32,000 bases of DNA from Wolbachia endosymbiont strain TRS of Brugia malayi (GTDB lineage: Bacteria > Pseudomonadota > Alphaproteobacteria > Rickettsiales > Anaplasmataceae): positions 60,001-92,000 of the forward strand of contig NC_006833.1 of the NCBI RefSeq assembly GCF_000008385.1. The letters run 5' to 3'. The notes below the pieces were generated by a model that had not been told where the DNA came from, did no database searches, and saw only the letters and a program-made list of their open reading frames with translations. A program made the translations under genes and the position numbers. Below are positions 1 through 28,118 of this stretch, piece by piece (positions within the stretch are counted from its first letter, which is position 1; each line of letters begins with the position of its first letter).

Positions 1-1318
1 TGGAAGGTATAGTAGCACAACTGCGTTCTATTTTTAATGACCTTGAGTACGAAAACCTGTGTAAAATACTCACTTAAAAAAGAAACTTACTTGGATAAAA
101 CGGCATTTAATTTCAAAAGGGTGCTAGCGGTCAAAAGTGCCGGTGTGCCGGAAGTAAATTTTTGCGACAATGTAAGATGTGTATATCCACACAATAATTT
201 GTTTTCACATGTGCTTGGCTACACTGATATAGATGGCAAGGGCATTGCTGGAGTTGAGGTATACATAAATAAGACTGGAATCCAGCCTCACGCTACTCGA
301 ATGACACCTGGTGAATATGTTCAACTATCCTTAGATACATGAGTGCAAGGTATAGTACATGAAGAACTAACTAAGGCTGTAAATGGATGTCAGGTACTTG
401 GTGGAGTAGGACTTGTTTTAAATGTGAAAAATAAGCAAGATCATTTCAGTGGTCAGCTTGCCTGATTTTGATTCCGATCTGCAAAATAAAGCGAAAAAGA
501 AGTATAAGAGTTTAGTCTCGTTAGTCTTGGAGTGTATGAGATGGGATCAGTGTTAAAATTTTTTACAATAGCTGCAACGCTTGATGCAAACGTTGTAAAA
601 ACTAGTGATTTGTATGACGTATCAAAGCCAATCACAATTGGAAAGTGTAAAATTTAGGATTTTCATAAATCTGAAGTCAAAAAAATTACCAAGATATATT
701 TGTGAAATTATACAACATTAGTGCAGCAAAAGTTGCAGCCGAGTTAGGTACTGAGAAGCAAGTAGAATACTTTAAAACTATGAAACTTTTTTCTACTTTG
801 AAAATGAAATACTAGAGAAATCTACACCAATAACCCCGTATAAATAGAGTGAAAGCACTTTAATAACGGCATCTTGCGGTTATGGAAAGATGTAACCCAG
901 ATCCATCTTGTATAGACTGCAGCCGCATTAATCAGCAGTGGGATATTTCACAATGCAACTTTGATGTTAAATAAAGGAAGTATAGGAGAGCAGATTATTG
1001 CAAGAAGCGCTTACTGAGAAGTAAGAAAATTATTATGTGCAGCAGTAACAAATAGGATAGGTAGGAGAACAAGCATAAAAGCGTATTTGATAGGAGATAA
1101 AACTGTATCAGCAGAAAAAGTTGTAAACGATAAATACAACAAGAATGCAAACATAACATCATTTATAGGAGTGCTAACTACAGTTAACCCAGATATATAG
1201 TGCTAATTGTTATTAATGAACCTCAGGTCATACACCACACCTGAGGAATAATCACTACACCTATAGCTAAGAATATTATAAATAAAATAGCACCTATACT
1301 TAAATGTTACACCTGAGA
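1..1318 (+). pseudogene. Penicillin-binding protein 2 / FtsI-type peptidoglycan D,D-transpeptidase, degraded; the 5' end lies outside the window
   Basis: Plus-strand translation gives recognisable class-B PBP blocks broken by many stops and at least two frame changes. These are ..VYPHNNLFSHVLGYTDIDGKGIAGVE.., ..GGVGLVLNVKNKQDH.., ..YEMGSVLKFFTIAATLD.. (SxxK box), ..LYNISAAKVAAELGTEKQVEYF.. (SxN box, other frame), ..ASCGYGK / DVTQIHLV*TAAALISSG.. (split across two frames), ..GDKTVSAEK.. (decayed KTG box) and ..VLIVINEPQ..GIITTPIAKNIINKIAPIL. Only a 101-aa ORF (37..342) survives. Confidence 0.8.
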
Positions 1319-7024: not shown

Positions 7025-7047
7025 AGTGTCATTCCAGTGCGTGACTC
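7025..7047. repeat. Intergenic partial copy of the palindromic repeat family that is also found inside the 1111-aa ORF
   Basis: agtgtcattccagtgcgtgac matches the gtcattccagt..(loop)..actgg(a/g)atgac cores at 9671-9700, 11721-11745 and 12361-12390. Confidence 0.5.
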
Positions 7048-7398: not shown

Positions 7399-8550
7399 AA
7401 AGCAGCTAAAAAGATGTTCTACCCTTTTTCAAAATTTTTACATTAGTTGATAAAATCGTAAATCATCTACCAAATTTTATTTTTTTGCTTTTGTACCACA
7501 AATACTCTGTTATTGAGTGACTTGAGCGCCTGGCCAATTTTGCTCACTTCAATATTTTTACTATACGCAAATCTTTGAAAATCTCTTGTCAAATGTGTCC
7601 AACATATCTATCTATTTTCAAACTAAAATAATTGTACGCAGCGTATTGTTGCTTACAACTATGCCATTGTATTCTGGCAGTAAACTTTGCAACACCTTCT
7701 TGCCACGAGACTCGGTCATCTTTAGAAGTGTCAGAGCGCTTTGTTGTTATTACCCAACCCAGCCTCTTTCTCCTTGATTTCTGTGCTATGTTTCATCTAT
7801 ATGCAGGTTTCTTTCAATTCTTCCTTCATTTTCTCATATTCAGATGCGCATCTTTTGATACTCTGTGCTCAGTCTTTGATACTAAACTAAGACTTATATT
7901 GAGGTTAAATATACTGCTTAAAATTTGTTGTACTTTTCTTTTCGAGTTAATAAAAAAGCCACTTAGGCTGCTAATTGTTGTTTTAGCATTGAACCCTAGA
8001 GGACCTCTTGAAACCCCCATGGTTAAACTAGCTGAACCCTTCCTATCACAAGCTCTGTAATAGTTTCTTTGCAACCTGTACTCAGTTACGATTGGTTTGA
8101 TTTCTGGTAATTCTACCTTTTAATGGACAATTTCATCTTCTAAAACAACCTTATTTCCACACACACAAACCTGATAAAATTGTATAGTCTACTACTATAT
8201 TTGCTACCATCAAATCTCACTTATATACCTTATGCCCTGGCTGACCTCCTGGTTTTTTATCACTTTTCTTTTTTGTTTTTTTGCGATATATATCTTGCGA
8301 TGGTGGTAGAGATGAACTTTTTGAGTTCAGACCCAGTTTATCTTCTAGCTCAATTATTTTTGCTTTTAAGCCATCATTTTCTATAATCAGAGCCTTTATT
8401 TCTTCTTTGAGATTAGCGTTTTTTGATTTGTACGCCACAATCTTTTCTGCAGCCCTGTTATCATACCCACTCTATACTTAGCTTCTCATGTCTTTACACT
8501 TTTACAATCACTTTGTAAATCCCTTATCTCCGTGAACGGTTATAAATTTC
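7399..8550 (-). mobile_element. Degraded IS66-family insertion sequence, copy 1 (transposase pseudogene; boundaries approximate)
   Basis: Minus-strand fragments were found. ORF 8217..8438 reads MAYKSKNANLKEEIKALIIENDGLKAKIIELEDKLGLNSKSSSLPPSQD..KKPGGQPGHK, which is the IS66 TnpC leucine-zipper N-terminus plus the GGQPGH box. ORF 7826..8074 reads ..GVSRGPLGFNAKTTISSLSGFFINSKRKVQQILSSIFNLNISLS... The stretch 7569-7610 is homologous to the ..RQICWTHLSRDF.. region of copy 2. The right end cgtgaacggttataaatttc resembles the copy-2 end gctgaatggatacttttaac. The left end gttaaaag..cagctaa resembles the copy-2 terminal repeat with a deletion. Confidence 0.7.
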
Positions 8551-8582: not shown

Positions 8583-9300
8583 TATGAACCCAAATTTGCT
8601 TTTGTTAAGGTAATCCGCACAACAAATGGTATTATGCCAGCCTTGATACCCTCTCGGTGGAGCAAAATTACAATGTTCGTACAATTATGAACTTAGCCCA
8701 CATTAGTTATAGACTCCAGTATCAAGTGTGTAGTGACAGGAGAGTAGTACATTTGAGTAACAGGTGCTGAAATCAGTAAGCTCTTAAGTAACAGATAGTT
8801 GTATAATGAAGATTAAATTGTAGACCCTGTAAGGAACTGTACTGTATATCAATATCTTCCTGTGTCTTATTTTTATAATCATCCACTAGTGTGTAATTAA
8901 TATTAAACTTATTTAGTCTACGTTAATATTCATTGTAGAGATATTTTTCACCATAATCTTCCACTATGATATTTACGTAGTCAGCACTGTCAATATCAGA
9001 AAGCTTGTTACATATTTTTGAATCTTTAACTACATAGTGTTGTGTAAACTTGCATTCACTGCTGTCGTCTTTACAAAAAGAGAATTTTCTTTTTTAATCA
9101 CTATCTGTGGTAATGATAAATCTATTGCCTTCTTTATCTTTTGCTGAAAACTCATTACTGCTCTTATTTATAGAATATTGTTCCTTTGGAAATGTAAATG
9201 TTAAATGATATGTAATAATACTACCTTAATAAAAAGAGCTATTATAGTGTAGATTTATTATAAATAATATATATTATAGTATAATTAATCTAGAATAAAC

Positions 9301-12300
9301 TTAATAAACCTCAGTAGGCCTACCAGTTGGACCCATAAGAATGATTTGCTCACCTTCTCTTAAGTATCTGCATAAATTAGTAGAGCCTCCGGTTTCCAGC
9401 ACAATAGTGGAAATAAGTCCTTTTTTTTTGTTTACTTCAGTGCCGGTTACAGCTATACCTTCCATAGCAAAAGTTGTATTATTGATTTTTCTACTATTGG
9501 TTTCGAAATTTTGTAACCTAAAGAATTGTCCAGGTTGAAAGTTTTTTGCAGCAAGTGGTGCTTTAATTACTACTTCCACAACTTTATCTGTTAAATATTG
9601 GACTTTTACTACTTTCGCAGTAAATTGTTCTTTAATCCTGTTAAAGAATTCTTCATTAGTTCGGTGACTTAGTGTCATTCCAGTACGTAACACTGGGGTC
9701 CAATTCTTTGTTAATTTCGCCGAAAATGTTGCATATTGCGTTTGTTTATAACCGATTTTGCTGAACCCCAGTGTCACGCACTGGGGTGACAAGAAAGAAG
9801 AACTGGAATGATACCCTTTCTGGTGGAGGTTGCTTTTAAGCCATAATGTTTGTATGGCTGTGTGTCTGGGCACTGAGATGACATCCTTTGTGATGAAAGT
9901 TACCCTTATATTATAACATTCATATAGTTGCGTATGTGACGCTGAGATTCCAGTATTAAGTACTGAGGTAATAGGAGAAGATATTGGAATGACAGTAGCG
10001 GTGTTAGCTCCACTCAAAAGCTGGGAAATAATAGGGTAACCGTTCTTGGCGCTTGCCATAGCTTTCACGACGCTGCCACTATACGAAGGGTGAAGGTCGC
10101 CAAAAAAACTAATTGTTCTACCACCTTGTTTATACACTAATATTCTATCTTTGTTTTGCATTTTAGGAGAGAGTATTGGATCTATTTCCTCTCCTAGTGA
10201 GTTTAGGTGGGTGAAATATCCATTGCTTAATTTAAAGTGCTTTTTATCTTCTGTTGCAATAACCGTGTTTGGCTCAGTGCCTGCTGCTATGAGGATAGAG
10301 CGTGCTTTTATATACTTAATTTCATGAGATTTTGTGTCGATCAGTTTTATTGACTCAATATGGCTATATTTATCCGTCATAATTTCAACTGGCTCTGAGT
10401 TTTCGATGAAGTAGATTCCTTCTGACAATGCATTTTGCACCTCTTCGCTATTTAATCGATAACTTGGCGAATCTTTTAGCTCTTTTCTGTATACAACTTT
10501 CACTCCCCCTAAGCTCTGCATTAGCTCCAATATTTTTGCTTCTCTATTCTCTTTTTTCGCTAATTCTTTCTCTTTGCAGATCAGCTGTGCGTGTGATATA
10601 AACTCGTCCGCAATTTCGCGTTCTTCTTCTGTCCAGTCTTTTTCAACATAGTCTTTTCCATATTTATCAACCAATACTTCGTAACGAAGAAGAAATTTTT
10701 CTGCTTGAATTGGATAGTACGCTAAAGCTTCGGTTGCAGTGTCAATTGCGGTGAGTCCCGCACCTATGATAACTATCGGCATACGGACTTGCAGGTTTGC
10801 TAAGGAATCAAGTTTGAGAGCACCAGTGAGTTGTAATGACATCAGAAAATCGGAAGCCATACGCACTCCACGAGCTAGTATATTCTTTATTTTTATCATT
10901 CTTGGTTTGCCAGAACCAAGTGCTAGGGCTATGTGATTAAAACCCAAATTGAACGCATCATCAACGGTTACTGTGCCACAGAAGCGAATACCTCCATAGA
11001 TTGCAAAATTCTCACGTCTTTCCAGTAATAATCTAATGATCTTTAAGTAATTTTTATCCCACCGAGAGGTAATGCCGTATTCTGCTACTCCACCAAACCC
11101 GTCAGCTATACGTTCACTCAATTTTTCATGTTTAAAATCTTTAATTGGCTGGAGATCATCGTTCAAAGGCTCTATTTTTAATCCATCAATAGCGATAACA
11201 TTGTGTCCATCATTTAATAAATGATGAGCTAAGTTAAAACCTGCAGGACCGAGCCCAACAACTAAGACGTTTTTTCCAGTATTTTCTTTTGGCAATGGCT
11301 GCTGAAAGTTTAAGGGGTTCCAGCGGCTAAGTAGAGAATATATTTCAAATCCATACGGCAAACTGAGCACATCATCCAAAATTCTTGTTTCAACCATTGG
11401 CACATTCACGGGTTCTTGTTTTTGATATATGCATGAATTCATGCAGTCATTGCATATTTTATATCCGGTAGCTGCACATAGCGGATTATCTATCATCGCA
11501 ATTGCAAGGCTTGCTATGTTGTACCCTTCACTTTTCACCAGATTCATTTCTGATATTTTCTGTTCCAGTGGGCAGCCGTGCAGTTCAACCTTGAGTGGTG
11601 ATCTTTTAAAGGTATTGTAGTTATTCAATAGACTTTTTATGCATCCCTCTGACATCTGAGTGCATTTCCCTGTCATCCCGGTGCTTGATACCGGGATCCA
11701 CTCTTCTTTTTTTTTGGATTTCAGTGTCATATGCTGGAATGACAACGAAGTTTCCAATAACCCTTTTGAACAGCTATCCTTATTTTGTTTATGACAGAAT
11801 ATGCAATAGTGAGCATTATCTAATGCTTTATCTAAACTTACCTTTTCACTTGTTAGATCAAAGCCATATCGTCTTTTTATTTTGTTTGAATACAGCACTT
11901 CAACTTTATCCACTTCTTTTTTAGAAAATGATATCAGATTTTCGTGATCAATTTTTCTGTGAATGTTAAAGAGTATACTTCGTTTATTTTTCACTCTCCA
12001 CGCTGCATATTGTGCTGCAAGTTCTATTTCATCTTTATGGTTTTCTCTGTCTTCAAACCAGTGCATCACCTGCTCGGCAAAAATTTTTTCTGTTGTTGGT
12101 AAAGTAAGAAAGCAATTTAGTTCACTGGTAACATAATCAATATCTATATTCTCTGTATCGGCATATTTCTTCAATGCGTAGCGCTGAACAAATAACCTTT
12201 TACATTTGTATATTACAGCAAAGTCGTTGTGCTTTTTCTTTAACTCTTCTATTTCTTTTTCAACATTGAAAAGTTTTGCAATAAACCCATCGAGTAAATA

Positions 12301-12636
12301 CGCAAGATCTATAATCAACTGGCTATCTGTCATTTGACTAGCTGACATTGGGTGTTTCCTGGATTCTAGTGTCGCGCACTGGAATGACACCGAAGAAGAA
12401 GCTGTGTTTTTGCTTGACACTGGTTCTTTTTTTCTAGATTCTGATGTCCAATACTGAAATGATGCTGAAGAAGGGGTTGTTTCTTCTCTCGCTTCAATCA
12501 ATGAGCAAAATAAATCTTCATCGCATGATTTGATATAATCTAAAAATGCCTCGTCTAATTTTATTAATCCATTGCGAGTGTATAAATTCGAAAATGAGGC
12601 ATTAAAATTCAGCAGCATTACTATATTATACAGCAC
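9301..12636 (-). CDS. Large multidomain FAD/NAD(P)-dependent oxidoreductase: N-terminal extension, then a Cys-rich GltD/NfnB-like pyridine-nucleotide oxidoreductase core, then a C-terminal PyrK/NfnA-type FAD-binding barrel; carries in-frame palindromic-repeat insertions
   Basis: 1111-codon ORF with no stop in an AT-rich background. It has Cys clusters (HYCIFCHKQNKDSC.., ..NPLCAATGYKICNDCMNSCIY..) and two Rossmann motifs (VLVVGLGPAGFNLAHHLL.., ..IVIIGAGLTAIDTATEA..). The ferredoxin-reductase-type barrel reads FTAKVVKVQYLTDKVVEVVIKAP..FQPGQFFRLQNF..GEQIILMGPTGRP. Start is GTG at 12636 or ATG at 12618. Confidence 0.85.
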   Translation of the reverse strand: MLYNIVMLLNFNASFSNLYTRNGLIKLDEAFLDYIKSCDEDLFCSLIEAREETTPSSASFQYWTSESRKKEPVSSKNTASSSVSFQCATLESRKHPMSASQMTDSQLIIDLAYLLDGFIAKLFNVEKEIEELKKKHNDFAVIYKCKRLFVQRYALKKYADTENIDIDYVTSELNCFLTLPTTEKIFAEQVMHWFEDRENHKDEIELAAQYAAWRVKNKRSILFNIHRKIDHENLISFSKKEVDKVEVLYSNKIKRRYGFDLTSEKVSLDKALDNAHYCIFCHKQNKDSCSKGLLETSLSFQHMTLKSKKKEEWIPVSSTGMTGKCTQMSEGCIKSLLNNYNTFKRSPLKVELHGCPLEQKISEMNLVKSEGYNIASLAIAMIDNPLCAATGYKICNDCMNSCIYQKQEPVNVPMVETRILDDVLSLPYGFEIYSLLSRWNPLNFQQPLPKENTGKNVLVVGLGPAGFNLAHHLLNDGHNVIAIDGLKIEPLNDDLQPIKDFKHEKLSERIADGFGGVAEYGITSRWDKNYLKIIRLLLERRENFAIYGGIRFCGTVTVDDAFNLGFNHIALALGSGKPRMIKIKNILARGVRMASDFLMSLQLTGALKLDSLANLQVRMPIVIIGAGLTAIDTATEALAYYPIQAEKFLLRYEVLVDKYGKDYVEKDWTEEEREIADEFISHAQLICKEKELAKKENREAKILELMQSLGGVKVVYRKELKDSPSYRLNSEEVQNALSEGIYFIENSEPVEIMTDKYSHIESIKLIDTKSHEIKYIKARSILIAAGTEPNTVIATEDKKHFKLSNGYFTHLNSLGEEIDPILSPKMQNKDRILVYKQGGRTISFFGDLHPSYSGSVVKAMASAKNGYPIISQLLSGANTATVIPISSPITSVLNTGISASHTQLYECYNIRVTFITKDVISVPRHTAIQTLWLKSNLHQKGYHSSSSFLSPQCVTLGFSKIGYKQTQYATFSAKLTKNWTPVLRTGMTLSHRTNEEFFNRIKEQFTAKVVKVQYLTDKVVEVVIKAPLAAKNFQPGQFFRLQNFETNSRKINNTTFAMEGIAVTGTEVNKKKGLISTIVLETGGSTNLCRYLREGEQIILMGPTGRPTEVY
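9671..9995. repeat. Cluster of palindromic-repeat units inside the 1111-aa ORF (linker region)
   Basis: Units found: 9671-9700 agtgtcattccagtacgtaacactggggtc; 9764-9816 aaccccagtgtcacgcactggggtgacaagaaagaagaactggaatgatac (perfect 8-bp stem ccccagtg/cactgggg); 9866-9886 ctgggcactgagatgacatcc; and 9936-9995 gtgacgctgagattccagtattaagtactgaggtaataggagaagatattggaatgacag, which is position-by-position homologous to 9764-9816. 9676-9685 gtcattccag can also pair long-range with 9803-9812 ctggaatgat. Confidence 0.7.
11671..11750. repeat. Composite two-hairpin palindromic element inside the 1111-aa ORF
   Basis: tgtcATCCCGGTgcttgatACCGGGATccac-tcttcttttttttt-ggatttcagtGTCATatgctggaATGACaacgaag. It translates on the minus strand as ..SLSFQHMTLKSKKKEEWIPVSSTGMTGK... 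Confidence 0.7.
12358..12470. repeat. Two tandem units of the same palindromic element inside the 1111-aa ORF (N-terminal region)
   Basis: The units are cctggattctagtgtcgcgcactggaatgacaccgaag and tttctagattctgatgtccaatactgaaatgatgctgaag. The spacer (gcttgacactgg..) is homologous to the first hairpin of 11671-11750. The translation is ..SSASFQYWTSESRKKEPVSSKNTASSSVSFQCATLESRKHP... Confidence 0.7.
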
Positions 12637-13682: not shown

Positions 13683-16019
13683 TTAAATCCCCACTTCAAT
13701 AGAAAATTTAATATTTGATGATGGTATTATATCATAGGGCTCCTTAGCTAAAGGAAATCCAAAATCTAACCTAAATCTACCACCAAAAGGAGAAGGCATT
13801 GAAAAACCAAAGCCTGGTGAAACTCTCACGAGCTTACTATCGTGATATTTCCCCTCATACTCCTTTTTAATATCTAAGCCAAAAAGTGTTGCATAGTCAA
13901 CAAATAATGAGCCTTTGATACCAACGTAATCGTATAATTTTGGTAGTGGAAAATCCACTTGTTGTGTTAGATTAAAATAAGTTTTGCCTCCTAACGAACT
14001 TTTATTTTTATCTTTTGCTCTTGGCCCAATACCAGAAAGGTCAAACCCCCTAATCTCATTACCGCCTTTAAAAAAGCGCTGGCCAATGTTTAGCTCTTTA
14101 TCAGTATAGGAAAAAATATAACCTGCTGCCATTTTAAAACGCAGTATTATATCATCATCAATTTTACTTAATATAGGATGCGTATAAAAAGATAAGAATT
14201 CAGATTTTAGGAAATTCATATTTCCTCCAAGCCCAGAGATATCCTGACTTAAACGCAACAAATACCCCTCTCTTGGAGCATAAAGATTGTCCAGTTTATT
14301 ATATGCTAATGTATATCCTACTGATGAAATTTGGTATTCACCTTGTTGACTCCGTATTATCTCAGAGATATCTTCATCTTTTCCACCCTTATTGTCCATG
14401 TGTATATGGTTATACTTATAAGAATAACGAATAGAATTAGTTAAGTTTTCTATAATTTTATGTAATAATTGTGCTATCCCTCCCCAGTCACAGCTATCAA
14501 AAGTAGTGTTTGGTTTATCTTGTCTTTCATAAAATACATCTACACCTAGTGATGTATCAGAATCATTAAAGTTATTTTCAACAACTTCTACATTGGTAGA
14601 AAATACATATTGACTTTTCTCAAGGGCGAAGGAGAGCTCTTTTCCAGTACCAAATAGATTACGGTCTTTGAAATCAGTTTTTATAAATGCTCCACCAGGA
14701 AAAGATACACCTCCTCCTAAATACAACGAAGTAGTATTTTTTTCTTTAACATTTAAGTCAAGATTTACTGCATTATCATTAATTGCATAACTATTTATTT
14801 TTACTGTTTCGAAGAAATCACTACCAATTAGTCTTCTACGTGACTTTTGAACCTCAGATGTATTGTACGCGTCACCTTCTGCTACACTGAGCTTGCTTCT
14901 AATTACTTTATCTAAAGTACGATCATTACCGTCGATTGTAATCTGATTTATATAAATTTTTTTACCTGGCAACACTCTATAAGTTACATCTACAACATTA
15001 CCGTGCTGTGTGTATTCTGGATTAACTTTTGCAAATATATATCCTATCTCGTTTAAATACTTGTTTATTTTTTCTACTGCATTGCTCACTTTAACCCTAT
15101 CGAATACTTTATTGTCTTCTTTAGTTATCAGTTCCAATACTTTCTCTTTTAAGTCTGGATCTTGAATTTCAGCTTCAACATTAACTTTGTTACTTCCAAA
15201 TAAATATTGTTGTCCTTCATCGATTAAAAAAGTTAACTCTATTTGATTATTATTATCAATTTCGGCAATTGGCTGAATACTATTATTAATATACCCCTTG
15301 GATGAATAAAAGCGATCGAGTAATTCTTCATTAGTTAACAAATACTGTGGCGAATAATGATTTCCACCTTTAAAAATGGCTCTAAACAACTTATTAAATA
15401 TATCATTACTTTGCACTTTTATAGCTCGCTCTAGCTCATTTTCAGAAAAGTTTTTATTACCTATAAATCTTACACTCTTAACTCTAGAGGTTTTACCTTC
15501 CTTTACTTTAAAGATTAAATTAACCCTATTACCATCAAGCTTGTCCAGCTCATATTCAACTTTAACACCAATCTTACCATTATGTCTGTAGAGAGTGACT
15601 AAATTCACTAAATCACTCTGCAATTTTGTCTCAGTGAAAATAGTTAAAGGTTTTGATTGGATAACATTATTTAGTAGTTCTTTGCTTTTAAATTGCTTAT
15701 TACCTTTTAATATTACCTTGTTAATCAACGGATTTTCTTGGACTTTTATTACCAATTTTTTTTCATTATCGATATAGGCATGAACACTAGCAAATAACTT
15801 TGTTTTATATAAGCTTTTTATAATCGAATCTATGTCGTCGTCATTTACATAACTATCGGGCTCTAATTTGATATAAAACTTTATTGTTTGATCGCCAACC
15901 CGCTCATTGCCAATGCATTTGATATCCTTTATTTGTGTTTTTTCATTATTTTCTGAAGCGGCAAGTAGGATAGGAAAAGAGATAAAAATTACTATTAGTA
16001 TATAAGATAGTTTTCTCAT
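13683..16019 (-). CDS. bamA: Outer membrane protein assembly factor BamA (Omp85)
   Basis: 778 aa with a signal peptide, POTRA-like repeats (..IKDIKCIGNERV.., ..VKSVRFIGNKNFS..) and a C-terminal beta-barrel ending in alternating aromatic residues (..FRLDFGFPL..IKFSIEVGI). Confidence 0.95.
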   Translation of the reverse strand: MRKLSYILIVIFISFPILLAASENNEKTQIKDIKCIGNERVGDQTIKFYIKLEPDSYVNDDDIDSIIKSLYKTKLFASVHAYIDNEKKLVIKVQENPLINKVILKGNKQFKSKELLNNVIQSKPLTIFTETKLQSDLVNLVTLYRHNGKIGVKVEYELDKLDGNRVNLIFKVKEGKTSRVKSVRFIGNKNFSENELERAIKVQSNDIFNKLFRAIFKGGNHYSPQYLLTNEELLDRFYSSKGYINNSIQPIAEIDNNNQIELTFLIDEGQQYLFGSNKVNVEAEIQDPDLKEKVLELITKEDNKVFDRVKVSNAVEKINKYLNEIGYIFAKVNPEYTQHGNVVDVTYRVLPGKKIYINQITIDGNDRTLDKVIRSKLSVAEGDAYNTSEVQKSRRRLIGSDFFETVKINSYAINDNAVNLDLNVKEKNTTSLYLGGGVSFPGGAFIKTDFKDRNLFGTGKELSFALEKSQYVFSTNVEVVENNFNDSDTSLGVDVFYERQDKPNTTFDSCDWGGIAQLLHKIIENLTNSIRYSYKYNHIHMDNKGGKDEDISEIIRSQQGEYQISSVGYTLAYNKLDNLYAPREGYLLRLSQDISGLGGNMNFLKSEFLSFYTHPILSKIDDDIILRFKMAAGYIFSYTDKELNIGQRFFKGGNEIRGFDLSGIGPRAKDKNKSSLGGKTYFNLTQQVDFPLPKLYDYVGIKGSLFVDYATLFGLDIKKEYEGKYHDSKLVRVSPGFGFSMPSPFGGRFRLDFGFPLAKEPYDIIPSSNIKFSIEVGI

Positions 16020-16026
16020 ATTTATC

Positions 16027-17151
16027 TTAAAAAAGATGCCTTATATCATTTGAGATTGCGATTGCCATTAGCAAGAACAAAACGGAAGCACCAAAAGTAG
16101 CTGCATATTTTTGATACTTCAAACTCAAATCTCTACGTATAACTGCTTCTATAATGTAGTGAAATAAATGTCCACCATCGAGTAATGGAATTGGCAGCAA
16201 GTTAATCGCAGCTAAATTAGCTGAGATAATTGCCATAAAGTATAAAACCATAATAAATCCTTTTTTAGCTGATTGCCCTGAATATTTTGCGATTTTTATC
16301 GGTCCACCTATTTCATTTACACTCCTCTTACCAACGATAATTTGAAAGAGAGCTTTGATTGTTAAGCACATAGTATGATAAGTTTCGCTTACTGACAAGC
16401 TCACAGCTCCAAAAAAAGATGACTGCCTTAACTCCTTTATGTTAACTGAAGTAATTCCTATGGTTTTTCTTTCTATTATGTTGCCAAAAATATCCTTATC
16501 TTCAATTGTCAATGGGGTAAGACTAGTGCTATACTCCTCATTATTCCTACTATATTTAATTTCTATTTTCGTTTCAGGGTTTGACATCATTACACGTGAA
16601 ATATCTTCAAAGTATTTTATTTTATACTCATTAATCTGTGTAATAGTGTCACCTGGTAATAGGCCAGCCTGCTTTGCTGCACTGCCTTCAATCACCTTTC
16701 CAATTACTGGTGGAGTGTGATAATAACCTACTACACTAAAAAATACCGTCAGGGCTATAATGGCAAATATCATATTTGCAAATGGTCCTGCAAAAACTAT
16801 TGCTGCTTTTTGATATCGAGGTTTTGTATGGAGTGAATATGACTTTTCCTCTTCGGTTAATTCTTGTTGATCAATTGGGGTGTTCGCTGCATTGTTGTCT
16901 CCTAGCATTTTAACATAGCCGCCAAGTGGAATAGCACTTAATTTCCATCTGGTTCCAGACTTATCGTAAAAACCAAAAATTCCTGGACCGAAGCCTATAG
17001 AAAAAGACTCAACTTTAACTTTGTATGCTTTGGCAATAATGTAATGTCCATATTCGTGCACAAATACTATGACAGAGATAATTAAGGAAAATGACAAAAA
17101 ATTATATATTCCACCGCCAAGTTGATGGATAAGATTAGAAATTAGTTCCAC
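16027..17151 (-). CDS. rseP: RIP zinc metalloprotease RseP (site-2 protease)
   Basis: 374 aa with a GTG start. It has the HEYGHY zinc motif in TM1, a PDZ segment (..GSAAKQAGLLPGDTI..) and the C-terminal NLLPIPLLDGG motif. Confidence 0.93.
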   Translation of the reverse strand: MELISNLIHQLGGGIYNFLSFSLIISVIVFVHEYGHYIIAKAYKVKVESFSIGFGPGIFGFYDKSGTRWKLSAIPLGGYVKMLGDNNAANTPIDQQELTEEEKSYSLHTKPRYQKAAIVFAGPFANMIFAIIALTVFFSVVGYYHTPPVIGKVIEGSAAKQAGLLPGDTITQINEYKIKYFEDISRVMMSNPETKIEIKYSRNNEEYSTSLTPLTIEDKDIFGNIIERKTIGITSVNIKELRQSSFFGAVSLSVSETYHTMCLTIKALFQIIVGKRSVNEIGGPIKIAKYSGQSAKKGFIMVLYFMAIISANLAAINLLPIPLLDGGHLFHYIIEAVIRRDLSLKYQKYAATFGASVLFLLMAIAISNDIRHLF

Positions 17152-26862: not shown

Positions 26863-28118
26863 ATTCAGCTAAGCGGTGTGAGAGACGATAGATAGGAGAT
26901 TATGGAAAGGATTTAGCTCCTTTTGTTTCCATGTTAAGTATAATGAAATTACCCATTCAAAAAATGCATTTCTTTGTCCCGATTATGTAAAATATGGATT
27001 TTTGTATAAACGATATAATGCAGTGTTTGCCGTTCAGTATGGTTGTTCGTTAGCAGAATGTTTCCTGGTTCATCCAAAAATTTCCACATCGTCCTTTCAA
27101 CTTCAAAATATTTTTTGCAACTCGAGAGGCTCCAATTGTTTTAGGTAACTGGGATATCTCCTTCAAGTAATACCTTGTGCACTTTCACAATTTTCTGGTA
27201 CGCCTGACAAATCTTAAAATATCTATCTCATTCTTTAGTAAGGCTCTTTTAGTGCAAATAACTCAGCAGCAACGTTTCTTAAATAACAGGCGAGAACTTT
27301 GACTTCTCTGTTACAACTATAGGCTAATCTTTCAAAATCTCTTGATAAATGAGTCCAACAAATCTGTCTCTTTTTATCAGTAAAATAACCGTATGCTGCA
27401 TACCTGTTAGTTATTACTAAGCTATGACAATTGCAGAATTTACTATTTTTTTAAACTTTCATTCCTCTTAACTCTGTCAACTTTACAAAACTTGCCGTAT
27501 TACTTGTAAACATCCAGCACTAACTAAGCTTACCTTTATTGTAATGGCTGGTTTCGTCAATATAAAGAACTTTGCTTGTACTTACTTCTTGTTTAATCTG
27601 CTAATACATTTCTTCACATTTTGAAGCTATTCTATGTTCACTGTTTGATATGCTACCAACACTTATGTTCACATTGAAAATGTCATTATAATATTCGCTA
27701 TTCCATATTTCGAATTTTTATAAAACTTGCTGAATGCTGCAATTATCAACTTAACCCTTGGCCTAAATGTGTCTGGTATAACACCTTCCGGTAAGTTGAT
27801 ATTCCATTACATAAGACTCGATCTTCGGAAGATCAACTTGGTGGATGTATGGTTTATCACATAATGAATTTTTTGAATTTAAACCGAGCTTTTCCTTTAA
27901 CTCAGCATTTTCTATCTTCAAAGTCTTGTTCTCTGCCTTTAGACTTTCATTCTCTCTTTCCAATCTTTCTATTTTTGTTTCTAACTTTGCTATTTTCTGC
28001 TCCAGACTTCTGTAAAGTTCTAAAAGATTTACCATATTACCTCACTTTTGCTCTATCGTTATCTTTTATACTACCTTGTCTATCTTATTTTGCTACTCCG
28101 CTGAATGGATACTTTTAA
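26863..28118 (-). mobile_element. Degraded IS66-family insertion sequence, copy 2, with recognisable terminal inverted repeats
   Basis: The terminal repeats are gtaattcgtatccattcagc(taa)gcgg at 26863 and, in reverse complement, gttaaaagtatccattcagcgg at 28118. Minus-strand ORF 27763..28035 has a leucine-zipper N-terminus ..KEKLGLNSKNS joined directly to ..HQVDLPKIESYVMEYQL.., so the GGQPGH segment is deleted. Further minus-strand fragments include ..VLYIDETSHYNKGKL.., ..LVITNRYAAYGYFTDKKRQICWTHLSRDFERLA.., and many stops. Confidence 0.75.

Follow-up and report, generated by a model that had tools for sequence, protein, structure and literature searches.

In-frame Wolbachia palindromic elements appear to have enlarged the interdomain linker of an oxidoreductase in the Brugia malayi endosymbiont

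How can a run of palindromic repeats occupy the junction between two enzymatic domains and still be translated as part of one protein? Wolbachia palindromic elements (WPE) are small, non-autonomous, dispersed palindromic repeats, whose description reportedly goes back to Ogata, Suhre and Claverie (2005, Trends Microbiol 13:253). The question is raised by a long open reading frame of Wolbachia strain TRS of Brugia malayi (wBm), within a window of 32,000 nucleotides (NC_006833.1, positions 60,001 to 92,000); all coordinates given here are those of the window (Table 1). A sequence-only reading had described the linker between the two modules of the encoded protein as built almost entirely from GC-richer, hairpin-forming repeats, in at least four copies or partial copies and without a stop codon, and had raised the possibility that the repeats colonised a spacer between two formerly separate genes. 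The ORF, both domain boundaries, and the DNA strings and peptides quoted in that reading were all recovered at the positions it gave.

The host gene encodes a protein comprising an RP005_N domain, a GltD/NfnB-like core and a PyrK/NfnA-like module represented by its FAD barrel only, and the linker lies at the junction of the core and the barrel. The corresponding protein of the Wolbachia of Brugia pahangi is 99% identical. NCBIfam model PRK06567 matches the ORF with 803 bits, and PRK06222 matches aa 1007-1110 over its positions 2-95 of 281. The ORF falls below the equivalog cut-off of NCBIfam NF005128 (803 vs 1072 bits), a shortfall that fits the presence of three inserts and the absence of the C-terminal part. 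Precomputed Pfam matches to the protein are RP005_N and Pyr_redox_2, the latter being the sole match in a Pfam search alone. Foldseek placed the modelled protein closest to the large subunit of NfnI (5jfc_L, TMt 0.75) and to GltD (6s6s_E), and so identified a two-dinucleotide-binding core of the GltD/NfnB type. A complete PyrK/NfnA-like module with FAD, NAD and Fe-S parts is not present in the host protein, which has the FAD barrel alone; all aligned Wolbachia orthologues (P0106, P0121) lack the NAD-binding part as well as the PMQCMMKxICAQCLQ motif, and none of the 120 Wolbachia homologues listed exceeds 1105 aa. When the last 220 aa of the Neoehrlichia homologue were used as a tblastn query, neither the window nor the Wolbachia loci showed a relic of this part. 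The gene order BamA-OmpH-FabZ-host gene is conserved, and so, wherever it occurs, is Proton_antipo_M downstream.

Table 1. Features of the host gene and its repeat-derived inserts (positions in the window; E values from the arm profile)
Feature	Position	Strand	Description
Host gene	9301..12636	-	1111-aa ORF; FAD-dependent oxidoreductase, RP005 family
Expanded interdomain linker	9661..10008	-	aa 877-992; sense order Z, unique segment, X, Y
Element Y	9654..9813	-	Complete WPE copy; arms 9673-9702 (E 1.1e-8) and 9761-9791 (E 5.9e-8), spacer ~59 nt
Element X	9796..9895	-	Decayed WPE; arm 1 9862-9883 (E 0.018), spacer, start of arm 2 only (9802-9811)
Locus-specific segment TQLYECYNIRVTFITK	9886..9940	-	Common to supergroup D, T, B and F orthologues (alignment)
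Element Z	9940..9997	-	Apparent partial, split arm; peptide VIPISSPITSVLNTGISAS; arm 9946-9968 (E 0.0025), half-arm 9982-9994 (E 2.2)
Second in-frame WPE insert	11620..11745	-	aa 298-339; arms 11671-11700 (E 1.4e-7) and 11715-11744 (E 2e-7)
Third in-frame repeat insert	12340..12471	-	aa 56-99; strong arm 12359-12389 (E 1.8e-9)

The composition of the linker bears out much of the initial description. Its G+C content is 40.6%, compared with 37.3% for the ORF and 33.8% for the window, and across ~108 codons there are no stops in the coding frame against five in each of the other two sense frames. An nhmmer profile, made from 27 repeat arms of the window and six orthologous loci (consensus ATGTCATCCCAGTGCGTGACACTGGGATCCAG), finds two strong arms (E ~1e-8), a weak arm with E 0.0025 and another with E 0.018, and the fragments 9982-9994 and 9802-9811, neither of which reaches significance by itself. 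Folded as RNA, the whole linker is more stable than any of 100 shuffled sequences (z = -6.4). Phage records gave no blastn match to it. From these matches and from DNA alignment, the linker resolves into a complete element, Y, a decayed one, X, and a marginal partial one, Z. Together these account for ~85% of its length, so that 'almost entirely' holds for the larger part and fails for ~55 nt (9886-9940) without demonstrable repeat origin. For this latter segment no other repeat copy was matched by blastn; its membership in a longer dispersed repeat could be dismissed, since it matched orthologous genes and one further locus (L111) only.

The three elements are preserved to very different degrees. 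Y forms a hairpin with a stem of ~27 bp and a loop of ~60 nt (DNA fold z = -4.6), its arms 9673-9702 and 9762-9791 being 83% complementary, and in local alignment with a canonical WPE it scores 84, where shuffled sequences score 22 ± 4 (z ~15). A spacer like that of Y is present in an unrelated locus of wCon (L031). X scores 63 against 21 ± 4 for shuffles (z ~10), the upstream flank being shared as well, and is, when its DNA is aligned to that of supergroups T, B and F, the positional orthologue of a TIGR02697-type WPE in those supergroups. Z, which contains a 30-nt internal insert restricted to supergroup D, is marginal, scoring 24 where the shuffle maximum is 26. The repeat similarity therefore withstands formal statistics for Y and X, both well above shuffles, and does so only marginally for Z.

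The repeat is the published WPE family. The linker element is a palindrome of two ~30-nt inverted arms and a spacer, capable of forming a long hairpin; it is inserted in frame in a conserved gene whose orthologues in relatives lack it; and it belongs to a dispersed, multi-copy family confined to Wolbachia. The arm pattern occurs in at least 120 stretches, nearly all of them from contigs of Wolbachia or of Rickettsiales MAGs, apart from a few matches elsewhere that are due to chance; the loci carrying it contain 327 arms in 866 kb, 28% of them within open frames 200 codons or longer. For wBm the arm count covers the 32-kb window, which has ~11 matches with E<0.5; seven of the nine matches with E<0.05 fall within the host ORF. 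The wBm copies do not reach the cut-off of the WPE protein model TIGR02697 (27.55 bits), the linker peptide scoring 13 bits and the middle insert 27.1-27.4, but the orthologous linker matches this model over its full length with 62-84 bits in P0004, P0005, P0061 and P0119, which identifies the wBm copies as decayed relatives. Their assignment to WPE is accordingly one of DNA homology and positional orthology, and not of TIGR02697 membership. Orthologues already carry the NCBI name 'WPE palindromic element domain-containing protein'. The novelty implied by the sequence-only reading is thus not sustained: WPE are published, NCBI names the orthologues after them, TIGR02697 matches this same linker in other strains, and addA, addB and priA provide precedent (PMC4224334), such that in-frame expansion of a linker by WPE is a phenomenon already described. 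A passage in PMC3733652, citing Ogata 2005, places WPE in the Wolbachia of Brugia malayi itself.

Two more repeat inserts, not mentioned in the earlier description, lie upstream in the same ORF. The second insert comes close to the TIGR02697 cut-off, as given above, and scores 29.3 bits with Rfam model RF02625; it is not found in outgroups. The third has, beyond its strong arm, two degenerate ones (12411-12423 and 12434-12462, E 0.43 and 10), varies among Wolbachia and is likewise lacking in outgroups. In all, three segments and ~200 of 1111 residues, or ~19% of the wBm protein, are derived from repeats.

Comparison with orthologues settles the former state of the junction. In 18 diverse homologues both modules form one polypeptide joined by ~10-25 residues, and the fused gene with a short linker is found in Ca. 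Neoehrlichia, in diverse bacteria and in the insert-free Wolbachia of Pentidionis agamae. Measured from anchor to anchor, the linker is 28 aa in P0106, 47 aa in wMel and 135-136 aa in wBm and wLs. Hence the insertion is lineage-specific, and 9671-9995 is an in-frame pile-up of palindromic repeats that is peculiar to the lineage; because the modules were already fused in homologues, the repeats enlarged a pre-existing short interdomain linker, which to judge from the alignments grew from ~15 to ~125 aa by in-frame insertion of WPE. The idea of repeats in a former two-gene spacer is contradicted by the same comparison, and a joining of two genes across a spacer was rejected given the ancestral fusion and the dN/dS of the FAD barrel (0.07-0.17). 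The linkers of the three supergroup D strains differ only by a 3-nt indel. Other supergroups have different subsets of elements at this position, which marks the site as a recurrent hot spot. When P0106, with the shortest linker, was compared with filled sites, no target-site duplication or pair of empty and filled sites could be resolved, and transposition is consequently inseparable here from unequal recombination or duplication between arms. Even this shortest Wolbachia linker has a small hairpin, which may be a remnant.

The reading frame has nevertheless been kept. It is open in all Wolbachia orthologues examined, and differences in linker length among the D strains are multiples of three. 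Within the linker dN/dS is 0.37-0.78, against 0.07-0.085 for the core and 0.07-0.17 for the FAD barrel; low values in the flanking domains and higher ones between them indicate that selection on the downstream domain keeps the frame open. An AlphaFold (AF2) model from a diverse alignment of 20 sequences (pLDDT 77.5, pTM 0.79), used in place of one from 15 near-identical Wolbachia sequences that was uninformative (pLDDT 32), falls below a pLDDT of 50 only at residues 1-4, 56-99, 298-339 and 879-991. The linker is therefore predicted to be a disordered surface loop.

We consider it very probable that the linker is a graveyard of WPE copies accumulated in a permissive interdomain linker. Copies would have landed, or been duplicated, at the interdomain linker of a conserved oxidoreductase, a short and structurally permissive site. 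Since the repeat arm is free of stops in four of six reading frames, many insertions would be readable in frame, and those copies that kept the frame would have survived because the downstream FAD barrel is under purifying selection, leaving the inserted peptide to drift almost neutrally. At the supergroup D site, in the symbionts of Brugia and Litomosoides, the outcome is a complete Y, a decayed and truncated X, and a partial arm, Z, nested or abutting. Insertion itself presumably proceeded by transposition or by recombination between arms, and the linker probably has no function of its own. One observation sits less easily with a purely neutral relic: across the three D strains the Y stem, counted as 30 pairs, is 92% paired and four pairs have changed on both sides, a result reached by only 6 of 500 shuffles, which could reflect selection on the hairpin structure or conversion of one arm by the other.

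Whether the copies arrived separately is less certain. The multi-copy layout might mainly be the product of one resident WPE that was locally duplicated or whose arms recombined unequally, instead of several independent insertions; a single supergroup T WPE has flanks that match that of X on the upstream side and that of Y on the downstream side, X ends just inside its second arm where Y starts, and internal additions within arms differ between supergroups. The spacers, however, are unlike, that of X being of the TIGR02697 type and that of Y resembling the Rfam WsnRNA46 consensus and the wCon copy, which points to two subfamilies and not to simple duplication, and X and Y align with a score of only 26. 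We regard this alternative as possible but rather unlikely.

The unexpected point, also absent from the sequence-only reading, is that the best-preserved copy, Y, is also a member of Rfam WsnRNA46. This family of small RNAs is said to derive from Mayoral et al. (2014, PNAS 111:18721). Y matches RF02625 with 75.7 bits (gathering score 65.3) over model positions 1-151, in the sense orientation of the mRNA, and orthologous Y-site copies in wLbra, wLs and supergroups T, B and F pass the same model. In three orthologues the RF02625 match coincides with the TIGR02697 protein-domain match, so that both database families describe one DNA repeat; from this coincidence, Rfam WsnRNA46 and NCBIfam WPE_wolbac appear to be the same repeat. 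This link was not found in the literature searched, although specialists may know it. In the part of PMC12796755 that cites Mayoral 2014, WsnRNA-46 of wMelPop is reported to act on host Dhc and on Wolbachia murD.

It may be asked, then, whether WPE and the trans-kingdom sRNA WsnRNA-46 are one family whose sense hairpins within mRNAs are retained as sRNA precursors, either because their structure is under selection or because their arms undergo conversion, the linker thus serving a dual use as tolerated peptide and functional hairpin; we hold this to be improbable. That Y in particular is a functional precursor of the WsnRNA46 type, its hairpin under selection and its peptide merely tolerated, would be favoured by its full-length sense match above the gathering score, by the orthologous copies that pass the model, by the paired stem with its double-sided changes, by the stability of the folded linker and by the reported action on Dhc and murD, yet we think it quite improbable. 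RF02625 matches many copies, both intergenic and within ORFs, three of them in one wMel region (PMC9786649), and family membership may therefore mean merely that a sequence is a WPE repeat; covariation among three sequences amounts to one phylogenetic split, and gene conversion from other copies would give the same pattern; and wMel, the lineage in which the sRNA was described, has no copy at the linker site. It is scarcely credible that the long ORF is spurious, a chance open frame running over a repeat-filled spacer from one gene into a second gene or a pseudogene remnant. Wolbachia orthologues do lack the C-terminal NAD-binding, Cys-rich part of other homologues, and the arm is stop-free in most frames, yet all members of the family share the fusion, which is ancestral; the barrel beyond the linker is constrained (dN/dS 0.07-0.17); no Wolbachia orthologue examined has the frame interrupted, and D-strain indels are multiples of three; and with ~5 stops to 108 codons in the other frames, the probability of a chance open frame is estimated at roughly 1%.

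A graveyard of WPE copies has practical consequences. Repeat-derived segments predicted to be disordered make up ~19% of the protein and should be masked when this filarial Wolbachia enzyme is aligned, modelled or assessed as a drug target. The site illustrates how a permissive interdomain linker can be a recurrent sink for selfish palindromes. With one repeat apparently behind both families, Rfam-based pipelines will call 'sRNA genes' within ORFs, and the biology of WsnRNA-46 may need to be reread as that of a multi-copy repeat.

Among known systems the closest is WPE itself. Common to both are ~30-nt arms with a GTCATCCCAGTG...CACTGGGATGAC core, two inverted arms around a 45-60 nt spacer, a dispersed and Wolbachia-restricted distribution in many copies read in frame within conserved genes, and matches of TIGR02697 to the same linker in supergroup T, B and F orthologues; the wBm case differs in that its copies have decayed below the protein-model cut-off, that three nested or abutting elements fill ~85% of an interdomain linker, and that one gene has three separate insert sites. 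Y resembles WsnRNA46, a multi-copy family, in its full-length match above the gathering score and in the family's long hairpin, but forms part of a translated ORF, in sense orientation, instead of being a free-standing sRNA gene; expression, processing and host or murD targeting have been reported for the founding member. The Rickettsia palindromic elements (RPE), including the extended eRPE-4, were reportedly described by Ogata et al. (2000, Science 290:347; 2002, Genome Res 12:808). They are a functional analogy, being selfish palindromes that have inserted in frame where the surface of a conserved protein permits it, in another genus and with other sequence families. Their insertion is tolerated and neutral or slightly deleterious, as in the gmk example (PMC2229807), and an ATGAC motif is common to RPE and WPE (PMC3767692). 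The addA, addB and priA genes of Wolbachia contain in-frame WPE-like blocks of 171-843 nt (PMC4224334), which are like the present one in being multi-element, non-disruptive palindromic regions within housekeeping genes, and priA of locus L004 also contains arms; in the present case the host gene is a different one, the block lies exactly on a domain-domain junction, and it has been dissected into its individual elements.

The linker between the core and the FAD barrel of the 1111-aa oxidoreductase ORF consists largely of a known repeat, the Wolbachia palindromic element (WPE), whose first description PMC3733652 (citing Ogata 2005) places in B. malayi Wolbachia. In four proteins (P0004, P0005, P0061 and P0119) the orthologous linker scores 62-84 bits with the NCBIfam model TIGR02697 (WPE_wolbac), matched at full length, and orthologues of this kind carry the NCBI name 'WPE palindromic element domain-containing protein'; in wBm the model gives 13 bits for the linker and 27.1-27.4 for the middle insert, both under the cut-off of 27.55. 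The arm pattern is dispersed and, among the matches listed, nearly confined to Wolbachia. The finding of the sequence-only reading, palindromic repeats in a stop-free linker, is real and was largely rightly described, the DNA strings and peptides quoted all lying where they were placed. An nhmmer profile of 27 repeat arms, drawn from the window and six orthologous loci (consensus ATGTCATCCCAGTGCGTGACACTGGGATCCAG), recovers two strong and two weak but significant arms in the linker, with two further fragments that are non-significant alone. The strong arms are 83% complementary and form a stem of approximately 27 bp (DNA fold z -4.6), the RNA fold of the whole linker has z -6.4, and the coding frame has no stops against five in each other sense frame. 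G+C is 40.6% in the linker compared to 33.8% in the window.

The linker was dissected by DNA alignment of seven Wolbachia and by pairwise alignments to a canonical copy. In sense order it comprises element Z, a unique segment, X and Y; X scores 63 against the canonical copy (shuffles 21+-4) and Y scores 84 (shuffles 22+-4). The phrase 'almost entirely' needs one qualification for 9671-9995: approximately 85% of that interval is repeat-derived, and the unique segment was not found at other repeat loci. Supergroup T has a single element, whose two flanks correspond to the one upstream of X and the one downstream of Y; supergroups B and F have other additions within the second arm, wMel retains a short remnant only, and the linker of P0106, from a B-type strain, has 13 residues. 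With such differing element sets, the site is a recurrent hot spot whose copies are nested or abut one another.

Repeat features of the window and RF02625 elements at other Wolbachia loci
Feature	Position	Strand	Remark
Element Z	9940-9997	-	a single arm, split; marginal
Unique segment	9886-9940	-	peptide TQLYECYNIRVTFITK; common to supergroups D, T, B, F
Element X	9796-9895	-	decayed: arm 1, spacer, start of arm 2 only
Element Y	9654-9813	-	complete copy
Strong arm	9673-9702		nhmmer E 1.1e-8
Strong arm	9761-9791		nhmmer E 5.9e-8
Weak but significant arm	9946-9968		nhmmer E 0.0025
Weak but significant arm	9862-9883		nhmmer E 0.018
Isolated, partly decayed arm outside ORF	7027-7045	+	E 2e-4
Isolated, partly decayed arm outside ORF	8710-8727	-	E 0.035
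Isolated, partly decayed arm outside ORF	276-306	-	E 0.3
Further in-frame repeat insert	11620-11745	-	aa 298-339
Further in-frame repeat insert	12340-12471	-	aa 56-99
RF02625 element, L004	12605-12751
RF02625 element, L005	12479-12625
RF02625 element, L006	3563-3702
RF02625 element, L127	4815-4964
RF02625 element, L001	5812-5961

The part most worth following up is a cross-link between WPE and the small RNA WsnRNA46. Rfam RF02625 (WsnRNA46) matches Y on the sense strand over the full model length (75.7 bits, gathering score 65.3), and orthologous elements exceed the gathering score in wLbra, wLs and supergroup T, B and F strains. In the latter three supergroups the match coordinates coincide with those of TIGR02697, and thus both families appear to model one DNA repeat. 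RF02625 is multi-copy, occurring in ORFs and intergenically, as PMC9786649 also supports; a literature search for WPE and WsnRNA46 together found no paper naming both. According to PMC12796755 (citing Mayoral 2014), wMelPop reportedly secretes WsnRNA-46, which has a regulatory role there, and Y in wBm may likewise be processed into a small RNA of this type. One observation speaks for such a reading: the 30 pairs of the Y stem are 92% paired across wBm, wLbra and wLs (9669-9791(-) in the window, L127 4828-4950, L001 5825-5947), with four pairs altered on both sides, a pattern equalled in 6 of 500 shuffles, and the encoded peptide drifts while pairing is kept. This comparison represents one phylogenetic split and gene conversion would give the same pattern, which suggests either compensatory evolution or conversion between arms. 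In wBm the local hairpin of the middle insert (~11671-11700) also seems, as read by eye, to have had both sides of a pair altered, from A-T to G-C.

As protein, the inserted peptide would be a passenger drifting near neutrality, its frame kept open through selection on the downstream domain. Comparing wBm with wLs, supergroup T and wMel, dN/dS is 0.07-0.085 for the core, 0.07-0.17 for the FAD barrel and 0.37-0.78 for the linker; the two further inserts, both missing in outgroups, have values of 0.63 and 0.96 between wBm and wLs. The linkers of the three D strains differ in length by a single 3-nt indel, and four of six frames of the consensus arm lack stops. AlphaFold with a diverse alignment (pLDDT 77.5, pTM 0.79) places pLDDT <50 only at residues 1-4, 56-99, 298-339 and 879-991, the last three being exactly the three repeat inserts, without predicted secondary structure except a short helix at 331-337; structure prediction thus agrees with a disordered linker. 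All of this fits a near-neutral passenger in a selected frame.

The host ORF, 9301-12636(-), belongs to the RP005/PRK06567 family (NCBIfam, 803 bits, under the PRK06567 equivalog cut-off of 1072), with precomputed Pfam matches to RP005_N and Pyr_redox_2. Its AlphaFold model, a good one, resembles GltD and the large subunit of NfnI (5jfc_L, TMt 0.75). Similarity of aa 1007-1110 to PyrK/NfnA-like proteins is limited to the opening third of the latter (positions 2-95 of 281 in PRK06222), so the module labels, GltD/NfnB-like and PyrK/NfnA-like, were correct. The window is from a Brugia Wolbachia: identity is 99% with the protein from the Wolbachia endosymbiont of Brugia pahangi and 85-87% with Litomosoides symbiont proteins; the order BamA-OmpH-FabZ-gene is kept in other Wolbachia examined, with Proton_antipo_M downstream where that gene exists. 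A full HMMER scan returned 687 homologues at E<=1e-30, mostly of 1000-1250 aa, and the window protein was aligned with 17 representatives and two other Wolbachia sequences. No aligned relative carries a similarly long homologous linker, the finding by which the sequence-only reading could have been refuted: the junction is ~10-25 residues, and the expansion is therefore lineage-specific. The proposal that repeats bridged two formerly separate genes fails, both modules being one polypeptide in every aligned homologue, including that of Ca. Neoehrlichia (1130 aa). The fusion is ancestral, the repeats having lengthened a pre-existing linker. The Wolbachia of Pentidionis agamae has a 907-aa protein, insert-free at all sites.

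All Wolbachia orthologues examined stop right after LMGPTGxPTEVY and lack the C-terminal ~220-230 aa (NAD-binding region, PMQCMMKxICAQCLQ) present in Ca. Neoehrlichia and other homologues; purifying selection persists on the FAD barrel that is left, and no relic of the missing part was found at 8900-9300, downstream of the ORF end. Rfam ncrwmel02 (RF02749) lies antisense over the 3' end and downstream spacer, full-length in wMel and one supergroup-B strain (L002 5838-6088(-); L005 13003-13253(-)); the match in the window is confined to the final 47 nt of the family (9300-9346(+)), which overlap the conserved CDS end. The spacer to Proton_antipo_M is ~2.7 kb in the window compared to ~0.3 kb in wMel and holds insertion-sequence debris (7500-8450) with a 73-aa ORF matching DUF6444 (8217-8438(-)); repeats there pair with copies in 27300-27950 (7546-7618/27302-27374 and 8359-8412/27890-27943).

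In a biased 866-kb sample, only one of nine clusters with four or more arms lies in an open frame, most of them being non-coding; within this sample it is therefore uncommon, but not unprecedented, for dense clusters to be in frame. In-frame WPE-like blocks of 171-843 nt occur in addA, addB and priA (PMC4224334), and in the priA gene (14191-16365) of Ca. Wolbachia massiliensis (L004) we observed arms at 14394-14427 and 15710-15743, in agreement with the published priA regions. The mechanism, in which a permissive site tolerates in-frame copies of selfish palindromic repeats, is already known, and the RPE of Rickettsia is the well-studied analogue of WPE (PMC2229807).
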